A stretch of 64,000 bases of DNA, taken from Pseudomonadota bacterium. Lineage in GTDB: Bacteria > Pseudomonadota > Gammaproteobacteria > Burkholderiales > Burkholderiaceae_C. Numbering within the stretch: position 1 is the stretch's first letter; the number at the start of each line of letters is the position of its first letter. Below the pieces are notes generated by a model that made no database searches, had not been told where the DNA came from, and saw only the letters and a program-made list of their open reading frames with translations. Position numbers and translations under genes: made by a program. Below, piece after piece: positions 25,735 through 30,686 of the stretch. The stretch lies in assembly GCA_021848345.1 (NCBI GenBank), contig JAJZUV010000011.1, forward strand, positions 8,080-72,079, read 5' to 3'.

Positions 25735-27036
25735 TCAGCTCGACTGCCCGGGGTGCAGCACGCGGTCCTGCAGGCGCTTGAAGCCGATGAGCTTCATCAC
25801 GTACTTCTCGTAGATGGGCTCGGAGTTGCCGGTGCGCATCTTGCGCATGAAGTACTTCTCGAAGGCAATCTTGGCCAGGTGCACCCACTTGCCCGAGCCG
25901 AACCAGTTGACGTCGCGCGGCGGGATCTGCGGAATGGCCGCGAAGGCGGCTCCCGTGGTGCCGAAGTCGGCCAGGCAGATGGCTTGCCAGGTGCCCTTGT
26001 GGGTCGGCTGCGCGCCGGCCATCTGCTCCTCCAGGTTGTGCACGATGGCGGTGACCATGGACTCGATCATGAACCCCGTCTTGGGGACCCCGCAGGGCAC
26101 CGGCGTCGGCCCCACCGGAGGGATCGCGATGCACACGCCGGCGGAATAGATGTTGGGATACTTCGGGCTGCGCTGGTGCTCGTCGACGATGACGAAGCCG
26201 CGCGGATTGCACAACCCCTCCACCTTGGCCACCGCGTCGACGCCCTTGAAGGCCGGCAGCATCATCGAGTGCCGGAACGGCAGCTCGTGCTTGCGGAACA
26301 CGTTGCCCAGCGCGTCGAGTTCGTCCACGTACATCTTGCCCTGCTCGACCTTGGTGGTCCTGGCGTTGGTGATCCAGCGGATGTCGTGGTCGCGGAACTC
26401 ATGCTCCATGATGCCCTTGGAGTCGCCCACGCCGTCCAGGCCGAGGTGCCCGATGTAGGGTTCGGCGGTCACGAAGGTGATGGGCACCTTGCTGCGCAAG
26501 CGGCGCTTGCGCAGCGCGGCGTCCAGGATCATCGTGTACTCGTAGGCGGGGCCGAAGCAACTCGCCCCGGGCATGGCGCCGATGATCACGGGGCCGGGCT
26601 GCGCGCACAGGCGCTCGAAATCCTCGAAGCACTTCTCGGCATGGTCGATGGTGCAGATGGACTGGGTGAAGCCGGCGTGCGGGCCCGCTCCCTCCACCTC
26701 CTCGAAGGCCAGCTTCGGGCCGGTGGTGATGATCAGGAAGTCGTAGCTGACGCTGTCGCCGCCCTGCAGCACGATGGTGCTGGAGGCCGCGTCGATGGAT
26801 TGCGCCGGCCGCCCGATGAATTCGATGCCCTTGCGCTCCAGGTAGGGCGCGATGGGCAGCACGACCTGCTCGCGCGAACGCCAACCCACCGCGACCCAGG
26901 GGTTGGACGGCACGAACTGGAAATAGTCGACGCTGTTGATCACCGTGATGCGGTGTTCGCTGCCGAGCTTCGCCCTCGCCTCGTAGGCGGCGGGAAGTCC
27001 GCCGATACCCGCCCCAAGAATGACGATGTGTGCCAT
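25735..27036 (-). CDS. sqr: Sulfide:quinone oxidoreductase, type I (SqrA-like)
   Basis: MAHIVILGAGIGG, FQFVPSNPW, QSICT, ASCFGPAYE, PKTGFMIESM, ICLADFG, WVHLAKIAFEKYF. Confidence 0.95.
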   Translation of the reverse strand: MAHIVILGAGIGGLPAAYEARAKLGSEHRITVINSVDYFQFVPSNPWVAVGWRSREQVVLPIAPYLERKGIEFIGRPAQSIDAASSTIVLQGGDSVSYDFLIITTGPKLAFEEVEGAGPHAGFTQSICTIDHAEKCFEDFERLCAQPGPVIIGAMPGASCFGPAYEYTMILDAALRKRRLRSKVPITFVTAEPYIGHLGLDGVGDSKGIMEHEFRDHDIRWITNARTTKVEQGKMYVDELDALGNVFRKHELPFRHSMMLPAFKGVDAVAKVEGLCNPRGFVIVDEHQRSPKYPNIYSAGVCIAIPPVGPTPVPCGVPKTGFMIESMVTAIVHNLEEQMAGAQPTHKGTWQAICLADFGTTGAAFAAIPQIPPRDVNWFGSGKWVHLAKIAFEKYFMRKMRTGNSEPIYEKYVMKLIGFKRLQDRVLHPGQSS

Positions 27037-27123
27037 GGATGCCTTCCTCTCCTCGCAAAAGCCGGTGGTTGAGCCCCCGGTGTGAACCCCGGGGTGGATC
27101 GGGCAGCTTGCAGGATGCACCGC

Positions 27124-27144
27124 CCTGTATCGACGCAAAACAGG
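27124..27144. promoter_or_regulatory. CCTGT-N11-ACAGG inverted repeat (T-N11-A, LysR-type pattern)
   Basis: CCTGT ATCGACGCAAA ACAGG, 88 nt upstream of the sqr ATG. Confidence 0.3.
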
Positions 27145-27199
27145 ATAACCACCGATGCGAGCCGTGTTTCGCCGCGGACGGCAATGCCGTGGGGCGCGC

Positions 27200-27213
27200 T
27201 TGACGGGCATCAA
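27200..27213. promoter_or_regulatory. FNR/Anr-like box
   Basis: TTGAC-GGGC-ATCAA, 9/10 match to TTGAT-N4-ATCAA, midway in the divergent sqr/yeeE intergenic region. Confidence 0.55.
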
Positions 27214-27372
27214 TGCGCCTGCGAGCTCCCCTGGTGTTCCCCCCAAGCTGACTAACCCTAATACTCCCCACTGCATGTTTCTTTTGTATCTATACTCTCC
27301 CCGCTATCTGCACCGGATGCGCACGATCCTGCCGCGATTCGACGGCACAACGCCTGAGGAGACACGACCGCC

Positions 27373-27879
27373 ATGAAATCCCCTCGCCCTCTGTGGAACC
27401 CCTATGTAGCCGGCGTGGTGCTGGGCGCCGCGCTGCTGGCCACCTTCCTGGTGACCGGCAACGGCTACGGCGTGACCGGCGCCACCACGCTGGCCACGGC
27501 CGCGGCGGCCGGGCACCTCGCCGCCGGCACGGTGGCCCCCGGCACCTACCTGCACGGCCTGTTCGACGCCGGGCTGAATCACTGGATCACTTGGGAAGTC
27601 GTCGGCCTGGCCATCGGCGCGCTCGCCGGCAGCCTGCTGGCCGGACGCTTTCGCTGGGAGCTCGACGGCCCGGCGCGAGCGGCGCGCGGCTTGCGCCTGG
27701 TCCTGGCCCTGGCGGGAGGCACCGCCTCCGGCTTCGGGGCGCGCCTGGCCCTGGGCTGCACCAGCGGCATGGGCCTGTCCGGAGGCGCCACGCTGGCGGC
27801 CGCCGGCTTCCTGTTCCTGATCGGCTTTTTCGTCGCCGGCATCGCGTTCGGGCAAATCACCAAGGGGCTGTGGAAATGA
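27373..27879 (+). CDS. YeeE/YedE-family sulfur-compound transport membrane protein (half 1)
   Basis: WNPYVAGVVLG, multiple TM helices, GFGARLALGCTSG. Confidence 0.85.
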   Translation: MKSPRPLWNPYVAGVVLGAALLATFLVTGNGYGVTGATTLATAAAAGHLAAGTVAPGTYLHGLFDAGLNHWITWEVVGLAIGALAGSLLAGRFRWELDGPARAARGLRLVLALAGGTASGFGARLALGCTSGMGLSGGATLAAAGFLFLIGFFVAGIAFGQITKGLWK

Positions 27880-28451
27880 GTTTTCCTCTGGGGTATACGG
27901 GCCCGATCTCGGGCTTGCTACTGGGCACCGTATTCGGCTACGTGCTGGAGAACGCCGGTTTCGGCAGCGGCTGCAAGCTGACCGCGCAGCTGCGCTTCCA
28001 GGACTGGGCCGTGTTCAAGGTCATGTTCACCGCCATCGTGGTGGCCTCCGGCGGCCTGTACCTGCTGCAGGGCCTGGGCCTGATGAACGTGACCAACGAT
28101 CTGTTCGTCCCCTCCGTGTTCCTGTGGGGAAGCTCGCTGGGAGGCGTGCTCATCGGCGCCGGCATGGCCATCGGAGGCTATTGCCCCGGCACCTCGCTGG
28201 TGGCGTTCTGCTCCGGGCGGGTGGACGGGCTGGTGTTCCTGCTGGGCATCGTGCTGGGCACGCTGGGTTTCAACTCGGGCTACGAGTCCATCAAGACCTG
28301 GGCCTGGAAACAGGTGGGCCCCGACTCCCTGACCCTGCCGCAACTGCTGCACCTGCCGGCCTGGGCCGTGTGGGCGTTGCTGCTCGCGGTGCTGCTGGTC
28401 GTGGGCTACCTCACCCGCGGCAACGGCACCAGCGGGCGCCAGGCGGCTTGA
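27876..28451 (+). CDS. YeeE/YedE-family sulfur-compound transport membrane protein (half 2)
   Basis: GTVFGYVLE, QDWAVFKVMFTAI, GGYCPGTS; ATGA overlap with half 1. Confidence 0.85.
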   Translation: MSFPLGYTGPISGLLLGTVFGYVLENAGFGSGCKLTAQLRFQDWAVFKVMFTAIVVASGGLYLLQGLGLMNVTNDLFVPSVFLWGSSLGGVLIGAGMAIGGYCPGTSLVAFCSGRVDGLVFLLGIVLGTLGFNSGYESIKTWAWKQVGPDSLTLPQLLHLPAWAVWALLLAVLLVVGYLTRGNGTSGRQAA

Positions 28452-28616
28452 TCCGGGTCAAGCGCCCCGCGACCAGCCTCAGCGAAGCCCGGCTACCCGG
28501 CACTACGATGATCCGCTTTGCGTCACGCGGCCCGAGCTTGCGCGCAACCGCGCGAGCCGACGCCGCGGGCGCTCCCGACCCGCATTTCGTCGACCACCAT
28601 TGGAAGGAGACCGATC

Positions 28617-28883
28617 ATGGCGAAGTCCCGCATCAAGACCCGTATCAAGCTGTCCCACGCCCTGCCCGTGCTGGCGCTGGCCGCCGCGGCCGTGGCGCCC
28701 ATGCCCCAGGCGCTGCGCGCCGCGTCGCCCACGGCGCTGGCGCAGGCCTCGGCCAATCCCTGCGCGCCGGGCAACCCCTGCGCCCCGGGCGGAGCCAAGA
28801 AGAAGGCCAAGGCCGGCAACCCCTGCGCGCCCGCCGGCGGCAAGTCGAAGAAGAAGTCGGCCAACCCCTGCGCGCCGAACTGA
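28617..28883 (+). CDS. 88-aa probably exported peptide with four NPCAP repeats
   Basis: AAGGAG RBS at 28604-28609; basic N-terminus + hydrophobic stretch + A-x-A; NPCAP at 28755, 28773, 28818 and 28863 with Lys-rich spacers. Confidence 0.8.
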   Translation: MAKSRIKTRIKLSHALPVLALAAAAVAPMPQALRAASPTALAQASANPCAPGNPCAPGGAKKKAKAGNPCAPAGGKSKKKSANPCAPN

Positions 28884-28909
28884 GCATCGCAGGCACCGGC
28901 CGCAGCGCC

Positions 28910-29599
28910 GTGAGCACCCGCATCGCCCCTTCGCGCGAGCGATTGCTCGACGCGCTGCGCCGAGCGCCGCGCCGGCCGCTGGATGCGGCGCTCCAGGGCA
29001 CGCTTCGACACCTGCGCGCCAGCGCGCGCAGCGGCCGCGGCGTGCTGGCGGACCTGCTCGGGCGGGCCGAGGGCTTCGCCGAGTGGGAACACTACCCCCC
29101 GCGCGACGCGCTCGACGCGCGCAGCGGCTACCGCTTCTACTACCACGCCCACGCGGCGCAGCAACGAGTCCGAGGCGAGCACGGTCATTTCCACGTCTTC
29201 GCCCCGCGGCGCCCGCGCCGCGCGGGCGAAGCCGACTACGTGCACCTGTTCGGCCTGTCGGTCGATGCCCGCGGCATGCCGCTGCGCGTGTTCACCACCA
29301 ATCGCTGGGTCACCGCCGAGCACTGGCAGGACGCCGCCTGGACCCTGCGCGCACTGCGCCGGCTGGACCTTTCGCATGCTCGCCCGCGGCGCGTCGCCAG
29401 CTGGCTGGAGCACATGGCGCGATTGTTCGCACCCCAGATCGAGGCCGTGGTGCTCGAACGCGATCGACGGGTGGCCGAGCGCGCCCGTCGGCGCCCGCGC
29501 GAACAGGTGCTCGAGGACCGGCGCAGCCACATTCTCAGCCAGTGCGCCGCGGACCTGGCGCGCCAGCTCGACATCCTGCAGGCCGCGGATCTCGCCTGA
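28910..29599 (+). CDS. Uncharacterised His-rich protein (resembles DUF6969 from memory; unverified)
   Basis: WEHYP, YRFYYHAH, EHGHFHVF, HLFGLSVD, FTTNRWVT; GTG start inferred; same strand between the peptide and the rhodanese. Confidence 0.75.
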   Translation: MSTRIAPSRERLLDALRRAPRRPLDAALQGTLRHLRASARSGRGVLADLLGRAEGFAEWEHYPPRDALDARSGYRFYYHAHAAQQRVRGEHGHFHVFAPRRPRRAGEADYVHLFGLSVDARGMPLRVFTTNRWVTAEHWQDAAWTLRALRRLDLSHARPRRVASWLEHMARLFAPQIEAVVLERDRRVAERARRRPREQVLEDRRSHILSQCAADLARQLDILQAADLA

Positions 29600-29652
29600 A
29601 GGCGACGCGACCGACCACCGTTCACGCTTGTTGTTCAACCCGGAGGAGAACC

Positions 29653-30639
29653 ATGAAGACCCTGAAGTACCTGCTGGCAGCCGGCTTCGTCGGCGCCTGT
29701 GTGCAATTGGCCTCTGCGGCCACCCTGCCCGGTCCGCTGGTCACGCCGCAATGGCTGCATCAGCACCGTTCCGAGGTGACCGTCCTGGATATCCGCGACG
29801 ACATGGACACGCTGACCCGCGCGCCCAAGTTCGAGGTGGACAAGAAGACCGGCGCGAAGAAGCTGGTGGCCACCGGCGGTCACCTGGAAGGCGCGCTGTC
29901 GGTGGACTTCGGCAAGATCCGCCAGAACAAGGAAATCGACGGCAAGAAGATCGTCGCCCAGCTGCCCAGCGCCGAGTACTTCACCAAGGTGATGGACGAG
30001 GCCGGCCTGGACAAGGGCAAGCCCATCGTCATCGTGCCCACCGGCGAGACCGTGGACACCATGGACATGGCCACGCGACTGTATTTCCAGCTGCGCTACT
30101 TCGGCGAGCCCGAAGGCCAGGTGGCGATTCTCAACGGCGGCGTCAATGCCTGGCTGCAGGACGGCCTGCCGGTGAGCACCGCCAAGGTCAGCGCCCCCAA
30201 GGGTGACTGGGCCGCCACCGGCGAGGACAAGCAGATCCTCGCCACGCTCGATCAGGTCAAGGAAGGCCTGCGCAGCGGCGCCGACCAGTTCGTCGACGCG
30301 CGTCCCACGCCGCAGTTCCTGGGCATCGTGGTCAAGCGTCCGGTGGACGCGGCTGGCGGCCACCTGCCCGGCGCGCGCTCCTTCCCCACCGACGCCATCG
30401 TGCGCCCGGTGGGCGCCGCGCACGAGTTCATGAGCGCCGCCGACTACCGCAAGATATACGCCGAGTACGGCATCCAGCCGGGCGCCTCGACCGTGACCTA
30501 CTGCAACACCGGGCACCTGGCCTCGGGCGCCTGGTTCGTGGATCACGAGATCCTGGGCAACCCCAAGACCCGCCTGTACACCGGTTCCATGACCGAGTGG
30601 ACCAACCTGGGCAACCCGACCGTCGGCCTGCCGGGCTGA
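29653..30639 (+). CDS. Exported tandem-domain rhodanese/sulfurtransferase
   Basis: GGAGGAG RBS; Sec signal MKTLKYLLAAGFVGACVQLASA; LVTPQWL, ILNGG, VDAR, GHLPGA, YCNTGHLA, LYTGSMTEW. Confidence 0.92.
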   Translation: MKTLKYLLAAGFVGACVQLASAATLPGPLVTPQWLHQHRSEVTVLDIRDDMDTLTRAPKFEVDKKTGAKKLVATGGHLEGALSVDFGKIRQNKEIDGKKIVAQLPSAEYFTKVMDEAGLDKGKPIVIVPTGETVDTMDMATRLYFQLRYFGEPEGQVAILNGGVNAWLQDGLPVSTAKVSAPKGDWAATGEDKQILATLDQVKEGLRSGADQFVDARPTPQFLGIVVKRPVDAAGGHLPGARSFPTDAIVRPVGAAHEFMSAADYRKIYAEYGIQPGASTVTYCNTGHLASGAWFVDHEILGNPKTRLYTGSMTEWTNLGNPTVGLPG

Positions 30640-30660
30640 GCGTCGGCAGGAAGAGGAACG

Positions 30661-30686
30661 AGGGGCGCCGTCGGCGCCCCTTTTTT
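30661..30686 (+). terminator. Rho-independent terminator closing the yeeE...rhodanese unit
   Basis: AGGGGCGCCG / CGGCGCCCCT hairpin followed by a T run. Confidence 0.8.

Follow-up and report, generated by a model that had tools for sequence, protein, structure and literature searches.

YeeE/YedE family membrane proteins split into two halves have been linked to zero-valent sulfur uptake: YedE1E2 proteins of this split type import it and need their conserved cysteines (PMC10812762), and each of PmpA and PmpB is the counterpart of one half of YeeE (PMC11582611). In Cupriavidus pinatubonensis, Sinorhizobium meliloti and Serratia they are encoded by two adjacent half-size PF04143 genes with one invariant Cys in each product, and these genes often lie near sqr, pdo and rhodanese genes (PMC10812762, PMC11582611). 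The locus presented here, in a 64-kb stretch of contig JAJZUV010000011.1 (the whole stretch analysed, called the window), is alike in these respects. The minus strand carries sqr, the gene for a type I sulfide:quinone oxidoreductase (SQR); divergent from it, on the plus strand, are five genes closed by a single terminator. In the order yeeA-yeeB-peptide-DUF6969-rhodanese, with intergenic spacings of -4, 165, 26 and 53 nt, these encode two halves of a YeeE-type channel, a short exported peptide with repeated NPCAP motifs (the NPC peptide), a protein of the DUF6969 family and an exported rhodanese (Table 1). All six genes and the terminator were found in the window from the list of open reading frames (ORFs), the raw sequence and the family scans, as a first, sequence-only reading of this DNA had laid them out, except that the terminator had been placed at 30661-30686 and is now placed at 30660-30682. 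Three of the parts, namely SQR, the split channel and rhodanese, are of familiar types; the other two, the peptide family and DUF6969, are uncharacterised, and the fixed combination of these two with the channel and the exported rhodanese is undescribed in the literature searched, which agrees with the earlier statement that no described pathway of this five-gene composition was known; no paper naming DUF6969 or the module was found there, and a preprint on Thiomonas in mine water is silent on these genes. We propose that this is a conserved operon for handling sulfane sulfur (persulfide or polysulfide) across the inner membrane, a function to which, on sequence and gene context, we give about even chances. 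The proposal draws on the conserved gene order, the sqr, sox, psr-like and PDO-like neighbours, the invariant cysteines, the adjacency of the peptide and DUF6969 genes, and the domain fusions of the peptide.

Table 1. Features of the sqr-yeeAB locus in window coordinates.
Feature	Position	Strand	Basis
sqr, type I sulfide:quinone oxidoreductase, 433 aa	25735..27036	-	Pfam Pyr_redox_2 and alignment with 3SZ0
Divergent control region, 336 nt	27037..27372		alignment of 10 orthologous intergenic regions
yeeA, YeeE/YedE half A (PmpA/YedE1-like), 168 aa	27373..27879	+	PF04143 positions 177-308
yeeB, YeeE/YedE half B (PmpB/YedE2-like), 191 aa	27876..28451	+	PF04143 positions 4-149
Exported NPC-repeat peptide, 88 aa	28617..28883	+	predicted Sec-type signal peptide and 4 NPCAP repeats
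DUF6969 protein, 229 aa, GTG start at 28910	28910..29599	+	PF22308, E 7e-60
Exported tandem-domain rhodanese (sulfurtransferase), 328 aa	29653..30639	+	PF00581, two stretches
Intrinsic terminator, common to the operon and convergent murB	30660..30682	+	10-bp stem with 8 G-C pairs, then T run

Conservation of the operon and its known parts

One genome per species was scanned for DUF6969, and the 80 most similar of at least 578 loci were fetched with 10-kb flanks, onto which the window proteins were mapped by homology (our numbers for loci and proteins carry the prefixes L and P). The order YeeA-YeeB-peptide-DUF6969-rhodanese is found in ca. 40 of the 80 loci, among beta- and gammaproteobacteria, at protein identities down to 35-50%. 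The genera with the full order are Thiomonas, Tibeticola, Polynucleobacter, Rhodoferax, Noviherbaspirillum, Arenimonas, Rhodanobacter and Sinimarinibacterium, to which Nevskiaceae are added. Where at least 2.5 kb upstream and 1.5 kb downstream are available (53 loci), YeeE is present in 35, rhodanese in 34, the NPC peptide in at least 37, and all three in 28. The order is changed in Acidiphilium (L081), which has rhodanese, YeeE, YeeE, a 95-aa peptide and DUF6969 adjoining psrABC-like molybdoenzyme genes. Ciceribacter thiooxidans carries rhodanese, a full-length YeeE, peptide and DUF6969, and in Spectribacter (L083) the module lies between a divergent DsrE-thioredoxin pair and PDO-like and soxCDYZAXB genes (PDO: persulfide dioxygenase). 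The metagenomes, scanned for NPCAPxNPCAP, yielded 120 loci, of which 33 hold short exported Lys-rich NPC peptides, the rest being NPC tails or unrelated low-complexity repeats; DUF6969 follows within 200 nt on the same strand (gap 5-78 nt) in 26 of the 28 such peptides with at least 700 nt downstream. The co-occurrence of the YeeE pair, the NPC peptide, DUF6969 and the exported rhodanese that the sequence-only reading had proposed as a check is thus borne out in beta- and gammaproteobacteria and Acidiphilium. Its further question, whether sqr and sox accompany the module, can be answered with yes for many loci as to soxCDYZAX, which lies within 10 kb of DUF6969 in at least 16 of the 80 loci, mostly just downstream; sqr is an optional neighbour, linked to the module only in L001-L015 (the window clade and Thiomonas) and in matching metagenome loci.

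The product of yeeA matches the C-terminal half of PF04143 (Sulf_transp) and that of yeeB the N-terminal half, and the stop of yeeA overlaps the start of yeeB in an ATGA that can be read at 27876-27879. YeeA Cys129 (in LGCTSG), present in 67 of 67 orthologues, is matched in alignment by Cys293 of the Spirochaeta thermophila YeeE 6LEO, which is essential (PMC11582611). YeeB Cys103 (in GYCPGT), kept in 71 of 72 orthologues, corresponds to TsuA Cys91 by Pfam register only, phmmer having given no PDB alignment. With two PF04143 halves and one conserved Cys in each, YeeA and YeeB are predicted to be a split transporter of the YedE1E2/PmpAB kind. They differ from the described pairs in length (168 and 191 aa against ca. 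130-140 aa) and in that the half matching the C-terminal part of YeeE is encoded first, and the window adds the exported Cys-repeat peptide, DUF6969 and the exported tandem rhodanese, none of which occurs in described YedE1E2/PmpAB loci. The thiosulfate uptake system TsuA-TsuB (YeeE-YeeD) likewise contains a YeeE-family membrane protein, TsuA, that depends on a small partner encoded alongside. That partner, TsuB, is cytoplasmic and TusA-like (PMC11582611), whereas the window operon has no TusA, DsrE or YeeD gene and its DUF6969 protein belongs to a family without an invariant Cys.

The rhodanese has a hydrophobic, signal-peptide-like N-terminus (all signal peptides in this work were judged by eye) and its catalytic residue, Cys284, lies in the motif CNTGHLA of the C-terminal domain and is kept in 62 of 63 orthologues. 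Its closest PDB relatives are the two-domain sulfurtransferases 1UAR, 3AAX and 3HWI, and it is accordingly classed as a tandem-domain enzyme of the TST/MST type; it scores below the cut-offs of the NCBIfam equivalogs SseA and ExtH. For sqr the longest ORF is 25735-27276, and we place the true start at the ATG at 27036 (MAHIVILGAG) because the protein read from there aligns end to end with the type I SQR of Acidithiobacillus ferrooxidans (residues 2-428 with residues 5-433 of 3SZ0, E 2.6e-176). The redox residues Cys128, Cys160 and Cys354 (C128, C160 and C356 in A. ferrooxidans) are present and kept in orthologues. Given this full-length similarity and the three redox cysteines, the product is predicted to be a type I SQR. 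Parts in common with the BigR/Blh operons (blh with DUF442, and pmpAB) and with heterotrophic SQR-PDO-rhodanese systems are SQR, the split YeeE channel and a rhodanese-type or DUF442-type sulfurtransferase, and the likeness extends to a PDO-like gene that is adjacent in several related loci. The window differs from both in that no PDO-like or ArsR-type gene was found with the queries used, in that its rhodanese is exported, and in having the two extra uncharacterised genes.

Transcription as a unit, put forward earlier as a point to check, is in part supported by metatranscriptome contigs from mine drainage (of a strain ca. 95% identical), which bridge the yeeA/yeeB, peptide/DUF6969 and DUF6969/rhodanese junctions, three of the four, with possible carry-over of DNA to be kept in mind. 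One contig stops at 30645, just short of the terminator, and coverage is uneven, as is usual for RNA.

The NPC-repeat peptide and DUF6969

The peptide gene is preceded at 8 nt by a ribosome-binding site, GGAAGGAG, and encodes a signal-peptide-like N-terminus followed by four NPCAP repeats split by Lys-rich spacers, the last Cys standing 4 residues before the C-terminus. The repeats lie at 28755-28768, 28773-28786, 28818-28831 and 28863-28876, and the DNA pattern AAYCCNTGYGCNCC is found four times in the window, always within 28755-28876, against 0.12 expected by chance. The peptide has no match in Pfam or NCBIfam, and only 10 homologues are present among 5.8 billion protein clusters, the gene being almost never called; an in-frame orthologue lies upstream of DUF6969 in ca. 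50 of the 80 genome loci. All versions consist of a signal peptide or lipoprotein box and 2 to more than 10 copies of (N/H/K/A)-P-C-(A/G/M/S)-(P/A), and in many taxa the last Cys is 2-5 residues from the C-terminus. Beta- and gammaproteobacterial peptides have Lys-rich spacers and alphaproteobacterial ones tandem KNPCAA or NPCNPCAAK units; Met and His abound in a Legionellales version (MMDAHPCMP), one of the alphaproteobacterial peptides has an acidic character (EHPCAA), and that of Burkholderia glumae reads KCAP or KCGA. In the public record of one locus (L046) a masked N run falls within an NPC-repeat gene ca. 1 kb upstream of DUF6969, so that assemblies may contain too few genes of this kind. 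Low-complexity repeats of the PCAPV/NPCAPW type (L093, L107, L110, L123, L145, L161 and many others) likewise match the NPCAPxNPCAP DNA pattern; they are apparently unrelated false positives. The tail EPCNNCGPPP of a single-domain rhodanese (L050, 10663-11150, minus strand) resembles an NPCGP motif.

NPC repeats also occur as parts of larger proteins. They stand on either side of a single cytochrome c domain assigned by score to the SoxA/TsdA type (PF21342, 30.6 bits, cut-off 27) in L056, L070, L095, L099 and L102, and NPCAP repeats precede a DUF442/BLH_phosphatase CX5R domain in exported proteins of L092, L106, L125, L126, L168, L178 and L181. The genes of the latter adjoin YeeA and/or YeeB in L092, L125, L126 and L178, in the place usually taken by peptide and rhodanese, and mostly lack a DUF6969 gene nearby (L168 is the exception); their products may be a carrier fused to its transferase. 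Both kinds of fusion fit the earlier idea of an exported multi-Cys carrier of sulfane sulfur, an idea that is weakened by the occurrence of the peptide-DUF6969 pair in non-sulfur contexts as well.

Among the closest known systems is the SoxYZ carrier, with SoxAX a part of Sox thiosulfate oxidation, which is likewise exported, bears a reactive Cys among small residues near its C-terminus and has enzymes of the periplasm acting on it; further points of contact are the fusions of NPC repeats to a SoxA/TsdA-like cytochrome domain and the frequent position of the module beside soxCDYZAX. SoxY is folded and has one Cys only, that of GGCGG, whereas the NPC peptide is short, of low complexity and has 2 to more than 10 Cys; it has no similarity to SoxY and no PF13501, its motif is NPC(A/G)(P/A) and not GGCGG, and it is paired with DUF6969, which is probably cytoplasmic. 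We therefore do not class it as a SoxY carrier, the position of a Cys near the C-terminus being the only likeness in sequence.

The window DUF6969 protein matches PF22308 with 202.5 bits (gathering cut-off 27) and contains 12 His, 42 Arg and 1 Cys. An alignment of 23 diverse members has H61, P63, Y78, H79, H81, E90, H91, G92, H93, F94, H95 and H112 as invariant residues together with a TNxWVTxE block; it contains no invariant Cys, and none of the 23 members has a signal-peptide-like N-terminus. As this is so, and as one homologue (P0244) consists of DUF6969, then a membrane helix and then an SH3 domain, DUF6969 is probably cytoplasmic. A purely periplasmic relay, as in the sequence-only reading, is accordingly unlikely. 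The family is large: a profile search of 1.84 billion cluster representatives gave 1048 representatives at 50% identity, and the protein database holds 682 relatives (from Thiomonas, Acidiphilium, Salinisphaera, Spectribacter, Tibeticola and others) named only hypothetical or DUF6969.

An AlphaFold2 model, which is confident (pLDDT 94.5, pTM 0.91), begins with helices, continues with an antiparallel sheet of five strands and ends in a helical bundle. The invariant His residues fall at alternate positions on neighbouring strands and should line one face of the sheet in the manner of a metal site. Foldseek found no PDB match to the model below E 0.6, a profile search found no DUF6969 match among PDB sequences, and Pfam at E 10 gave no second family and no cupin. 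A cupin or 2-His-1-carboxylate dioxygenase, suggested by YYHAH...EHGHFH, was set aside, since the model does not show the double-stranded beta-helix barrel of such enzymes and support came from none of Foldseek, hmmsearch and Pfam. The few long DUF6969 homologues are a tandem duplication, the form with membrane helix and SH3 domain, or miscalled N-terminal extensions; domain fusions were discarded as a clue to function, the miscalled extensions being the peptide gene read in another frame.

On S. meliloti pSymA (L084/L087) and in ca. 100 Sinorhizobium megaplasmid records in all, an APCAAG-repeat peptide gene is followed by a partly matching DUF6969. In L084 a 3' remnant of YeeE lies upstream, the DUF6969 copy is frameshifted and decayed, and a convergent gene encodes an SH3-domain protein, echoing the domain make-up of P0244.

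Sulfane sulfur and the alternatives

Rhodaneses carry sulfur as a Cys persulfide and SQR makes polysulfide; the type I SQR of Rhodobacter capsulatus has been reported to face the periplasm, and the same orientation is assumed for the window SQR. In the scheme that we favour, sulfane sulfur would be generated or handled on the periplasmic side, by the type I SQR here and by Sox and Psr enzymes in other taxa. The exported rhodanese would load it as persulfide or polysulfide onto the cysteines of the NPC peptide. Flexible and rich in Lys, with its last Cys near the C-terminus, the peptide would be a many-armed counterpart to the GGCGG arm of SoxY and would pass the sulfur to the conserved cysteines of a heterodimeric channel of the PmpAB/YedE1E2 type, which would import it. 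DUF6969 would be a cytoplasmic His-cluster metalloprotein and the dedicated partner of the peptide, acting before export by a metal-dependent modification or handling of the Cys motif and not on imported sulfur. Because the pair occurs without the channel, because DUF6969 is probably cytoplasmic and because the peptide is Sec-exported, the precursor is the most likely target of DUF6969. Pairs without the channel on the one hand, and channel-rhodanese-peptide modules without DUF6969 on the other, point to a direct relation of DUF6969 to the peptide rather than to the channel. The modules without DUF6969 have the order rhodanese-YeeA-YeeB-peptide (L096, L097) and keep the NPCAP motif; they depart from the five-gene set of the sequence-only reading and show that the tie of the peptide to channel and rhodanese does not depend on DUF6969. 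The peptide is thus a hub, with the channel and sulfurtransferase or SoxA-like enzymes on one side and DUF6969 on the other.

A wider version of this scheme, possible in our view and held tentatively, makes DUF6969 a metalloenzyme of new fold that would modify, in the cytoplasm, the cysteines of Sec-exported (N/H/K)PC-repeat peptides and so create a new class of ribosomally made periplasmic carriers. Sulfur oxidisers would use these with the exported rhodanese and split YeeE to shuttle sulfane sulfur from SQR or Sox inward, and other bacteria would turn them to thiophilic metalloids. The peptide-DUF6969 pair has a real chance of being something categorically new. For the oxidation of sulfur by bacteria, as for the detoxification of sulfide, the way in which sulfane sulfur produced by type I SQR or Sox outside the inner membrane is held, protected and passed inward is of interest, and the module supplies concrete candidates for these tasks: a multi-Cys carrier peptide missed by most gene callers, an exported sulfurtransferase, a channel of the zero-valent-sulfur type and an orphan His-cluster family. 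The parts are small and readily expressed, so the hypotheses are directly testable, and since the module stands beside sox in freshwater Polynucleobacter and occurs in Thiomonas of mine drainage, its function bears on environmental sulfur cycling and acid generation.

Several observations weigh against a role in sulfur handling. The 80 loci are those closest to the window protein, and the share with a sulfur context is therefore biased upwards. In Methylocapsa, Pseudorhodoplanes, a Legionellales genome and others (L025, L048, L062, L063) the peptide-DUF6969 pair occurs by itself, surrounded by housekeeping genes, and eight Azospirillum-type loci have DUF6969 with no peptide, channel or rhodanese nearby. 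On B. glumae plasmids the pair lies inside a cluster annotated as ArsS, two arsenosugar-type glycosyltransferases and MTAP. The high content of His, Met or Glu in certain versions of the peptide (HPCMP, EHPCAA) is reminiscent of metal binding. The SoxA/TsdA match of the NPC-flanked cytochrome domain is just above the Pfam threshold, its TIGR04484 SoxA score of 25.8 bits is far below the cut-off, and it retrieved no SoxA or TsdA sequence from the PDB. NPC repeats are also fused, N- or C-terminally, to cytochrome P460 domains, which have no known role in sulfur metabolism; two of the three NPC-P460 genes examined have no DUF6969 nearby, and the third adjoins FGE-like and DUF6969 genes. No RNA contig from the mine-drainage metatranscriptome bridges the 165-nt gap between yeeB and the peptide gene, and co-transcription of yeeAB with the three genes downstream is putative. 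The sequence-only reading had taken a mainly non-sulfur occurrence of the peptide and DUF6969 genes as the outcome that would speak against it. Most sampled loci are sulfur loci; the pair alone, and in FGE/cupredoxin/P460 or ArsS contexts, does exist, and we regard that reading as a whole as partly supported.

Two further arrangements are found in alphaproteobacteria. In the first (L046, L056, L067, L070) the genes for an NPC peptide and DUF6969 are joined by those for a full-length YeeE, two periplasmic proteins, one cupredoxin-like and one FGE-sulfatase-like, and an NPC-haem protein; in the second FGE-like, DUF6969 and SpbR/DUF2336 genes are present and the peptide is absent, and six of these FGE-DUF6969 loci have a convergent gene for a periplasmic single-domain rhodanese (L050, L028, L035, L037, L040, L076). 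The cupredoxin-like protein (L056, 8090-8577; L067, 6761-7258; also L046 and L070) is small and periplasmic and has three Cys, with a PF13473 match at E 0.003 that is below the cut-off; in L056 and L067 its gene sits between the full-length YeeE and the NPC genes. Many alphaproteobacterial cytochrome P460 family proteins, only some of them encoded near DUF6969, carry long NPC/NPCNPCAAK tails at the N- or C-terminus, some with more than 60 Cys (L046, L055, L058, L059, L067, L088-L090; P0290, P0307, P0345, P0395). The C-terminal haem domain of these large NPC proteins has no Pfam match by hmmscan, the assignment to the cytochrome P460 family coming from the precomputed annotation of homologues. 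The DUF2336 neighbour is SpbR (NF052659). SpbR is a cell-pole protein of Caulobacter, and we rejected it as a functional partner of DUF6969, the adjacency probably being lineage synteny. A link of the FGE-like neighbour to the peptide through a CxPxR-like motif was likewise rejected, as the accompanying NPCAAK repeats lack the Pro and do not match that motif. Other neighbours of DUF6969/NPC genes are MsrB and DegP (L088) and a hemerythrin, a Crp-type regulator and a haem-copper oxidase (L056). The B. glumae locus (L086; plasmid p2_YH43, 5574-6666) has a KC(A/G)P-repeat signal-peptide gene and a DUF6969 homologue with H91 replaced by N, with thioredoxin, CcdA and an ECF sigma/anti-sigma pair upstream; it matches 49 Burkholderia plasmid records, all those listed being B. 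glumae. Since the pair occurs alone and in FGE, cupredoxin, P460 and ArsS contexts, its basic function may be broader than sulfur.

The likeliest rival reading makes the pair a system for a ribosomally synthesised and post-translationally modified peptide (RiPP). DUF6969, as a metalloenzyme of a fold absent from solved structures, would modify the Cys of the (N/H/K)-P-C-(A/G)-(P/A) motif ahead of Sec export; once mature, the peptide would buffer, within the periplasm, a thiophilic metal or metalloid (Cu(I) or As(III), for example), the sulfur genes having joined secondarily in sulfur oxidisers. We consider this reading unlikely. Its precedent is the bufferins, peptides modified by MNIO enzymes, whose Sec-signal Cys precursor is encoded directly upstream of a cytoplasmic metalloenzyme and whose product is periplasmic (PMC11626156), an arrangement like that of the pair. 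It would account for a self-sufficient pair in unrelated contexts, for the DUF6969 gene following the peptide gene by 5-78 nt in 26 of 28 cases, for a DUF6969 that is probably cytoplasmic and has invariant His and Glu, for the Met-, His- or Glu-rich peptides of Legionellales and other taxa, for the ArsS cluster of B. glumae with thioredoxin and CcdA, for the periplasmic FGE-like and cupredoxin-like genes at alphaproteobacterial loci, and for the mine-drainage habitats of the organism. The NPCAP motif, however, is unchanged in the rhodanese-YeeAB-peptide module that lacks DUF6969, and hence is not kept solely as a recognition site for DUF6969. Moreover, no cop, cus or czc genes were seen in the loci annotated gene by gene, which were not screened systematically, except an RND efflux pair near L081; Lys-rich spacers are atypical of Cu(I) sites; the sampled loci are mostly sulfur loci; and DUF6969 is unlike any known peptide-modifying enzyme. 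As to bufferins proper, DUF6969 is unrelated in sequence to their enzymes and has no solved structural relative, modification of the peptide is putative, and no match to DUF692 (MNIO) or DUF2063 was found among the window genes or seen in the Pfam-labelled related loci. The pair was not classed as a bufferin/MNIO system, the DUF692 enzyme and its DUF2063 partner not having been found.

Quite unlikely, in our estimate, is that DUF6969 instead receives or processes the sulfur imported by the channel, as a functional analogue of TsuB/YeeD or of a PDO that would use a metal centre in place of a Cys, the peptide being adjacent by operon order only. As the sole cytoplasmic product of the operon it could supply the cytoplasmic partner that YeeE-family importers need (PMC11582611); it combines a His/Glu cluster with the lack of an invariant Cys, it co-occurs with split or full-length YeeE in beta-, gamma- and alphaproteobacteria, and the convergent periplasmic rhodanese at the six FGE-DUF6969 loci would also agree with such a role. 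This is countered by peptide-DUF6969 pairs with no YeeE gene within 10 kb and by the YeeAB-rhodanese-peptide module that does without DUF6969; a PDO-like gene is adjacent in several loci, hence DUF6969 is not a simple replacement for PDO.

NPC peptides and tails might also serve generally as thiol buffers or scavengers in the periplasm, directed against oxidants, NO, sulfide or electrophiles; systems of the thioredoxin/CcdA type would keep them reduced, and the sulfur genes would be one client among several. The NPC tails on cytochrome P460 family proteins speak for it, as do the neighbours named above in L088 (MsrB/DegP), L086 (thioredoxin/CcdA) and L056 (hemerythrin, Crp-type regulator, haem-copper oxidase), but the strict order with the YeeE halves and rhodanese and the adjacency to sox would go unexplained and DUF6969 would have no role, and we judge it improbable. 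That the five genes are neighbours by chance or recent local rearrangement, without a shared function, has only the unbridged 165-nt gap in its favour and is scarcely credible, being contradicted by an order held across genera at 35-50% protein identity in genomes and metagenomes alike.

Control region and surroundings

The region between sqr and yeeA was compared in an alignment of 10 orthologous intergenic regions (A2), from the window clade plus Thiomonas. It contains a TTGAC-N4-ATCAA box of the FNR/CRP consensus type at 27200-27213 and the AT-rich blocks CCCTAATACTCC (27256-27267) and TCTATACT (27289-27296), all conserved from the window clade to Thiomonas. The box is a candidate binding site for a regulator of that type; genes for Crp-family regulators adjoin DUF6969 in L081 and L056, and in the window the adjacent genes include none for a regulator of ArsR, SqrR or FisR type.

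The locus is flanked by housekeeping genes, argG and ppnP on one side and murB, yajQ and plsY on the other. No other sulfur gene came up in the 64-kb window when sox, PDO-like, DsrE, psr, ArsR and related sequences served as tblastn queries; the window also lacks tRNA genes and has no match to an Rfam family that reaches the gathering score. The sequencing runs that contain the window stretch are mainly mine-drainage, mine and rhizosphere metagenomes.

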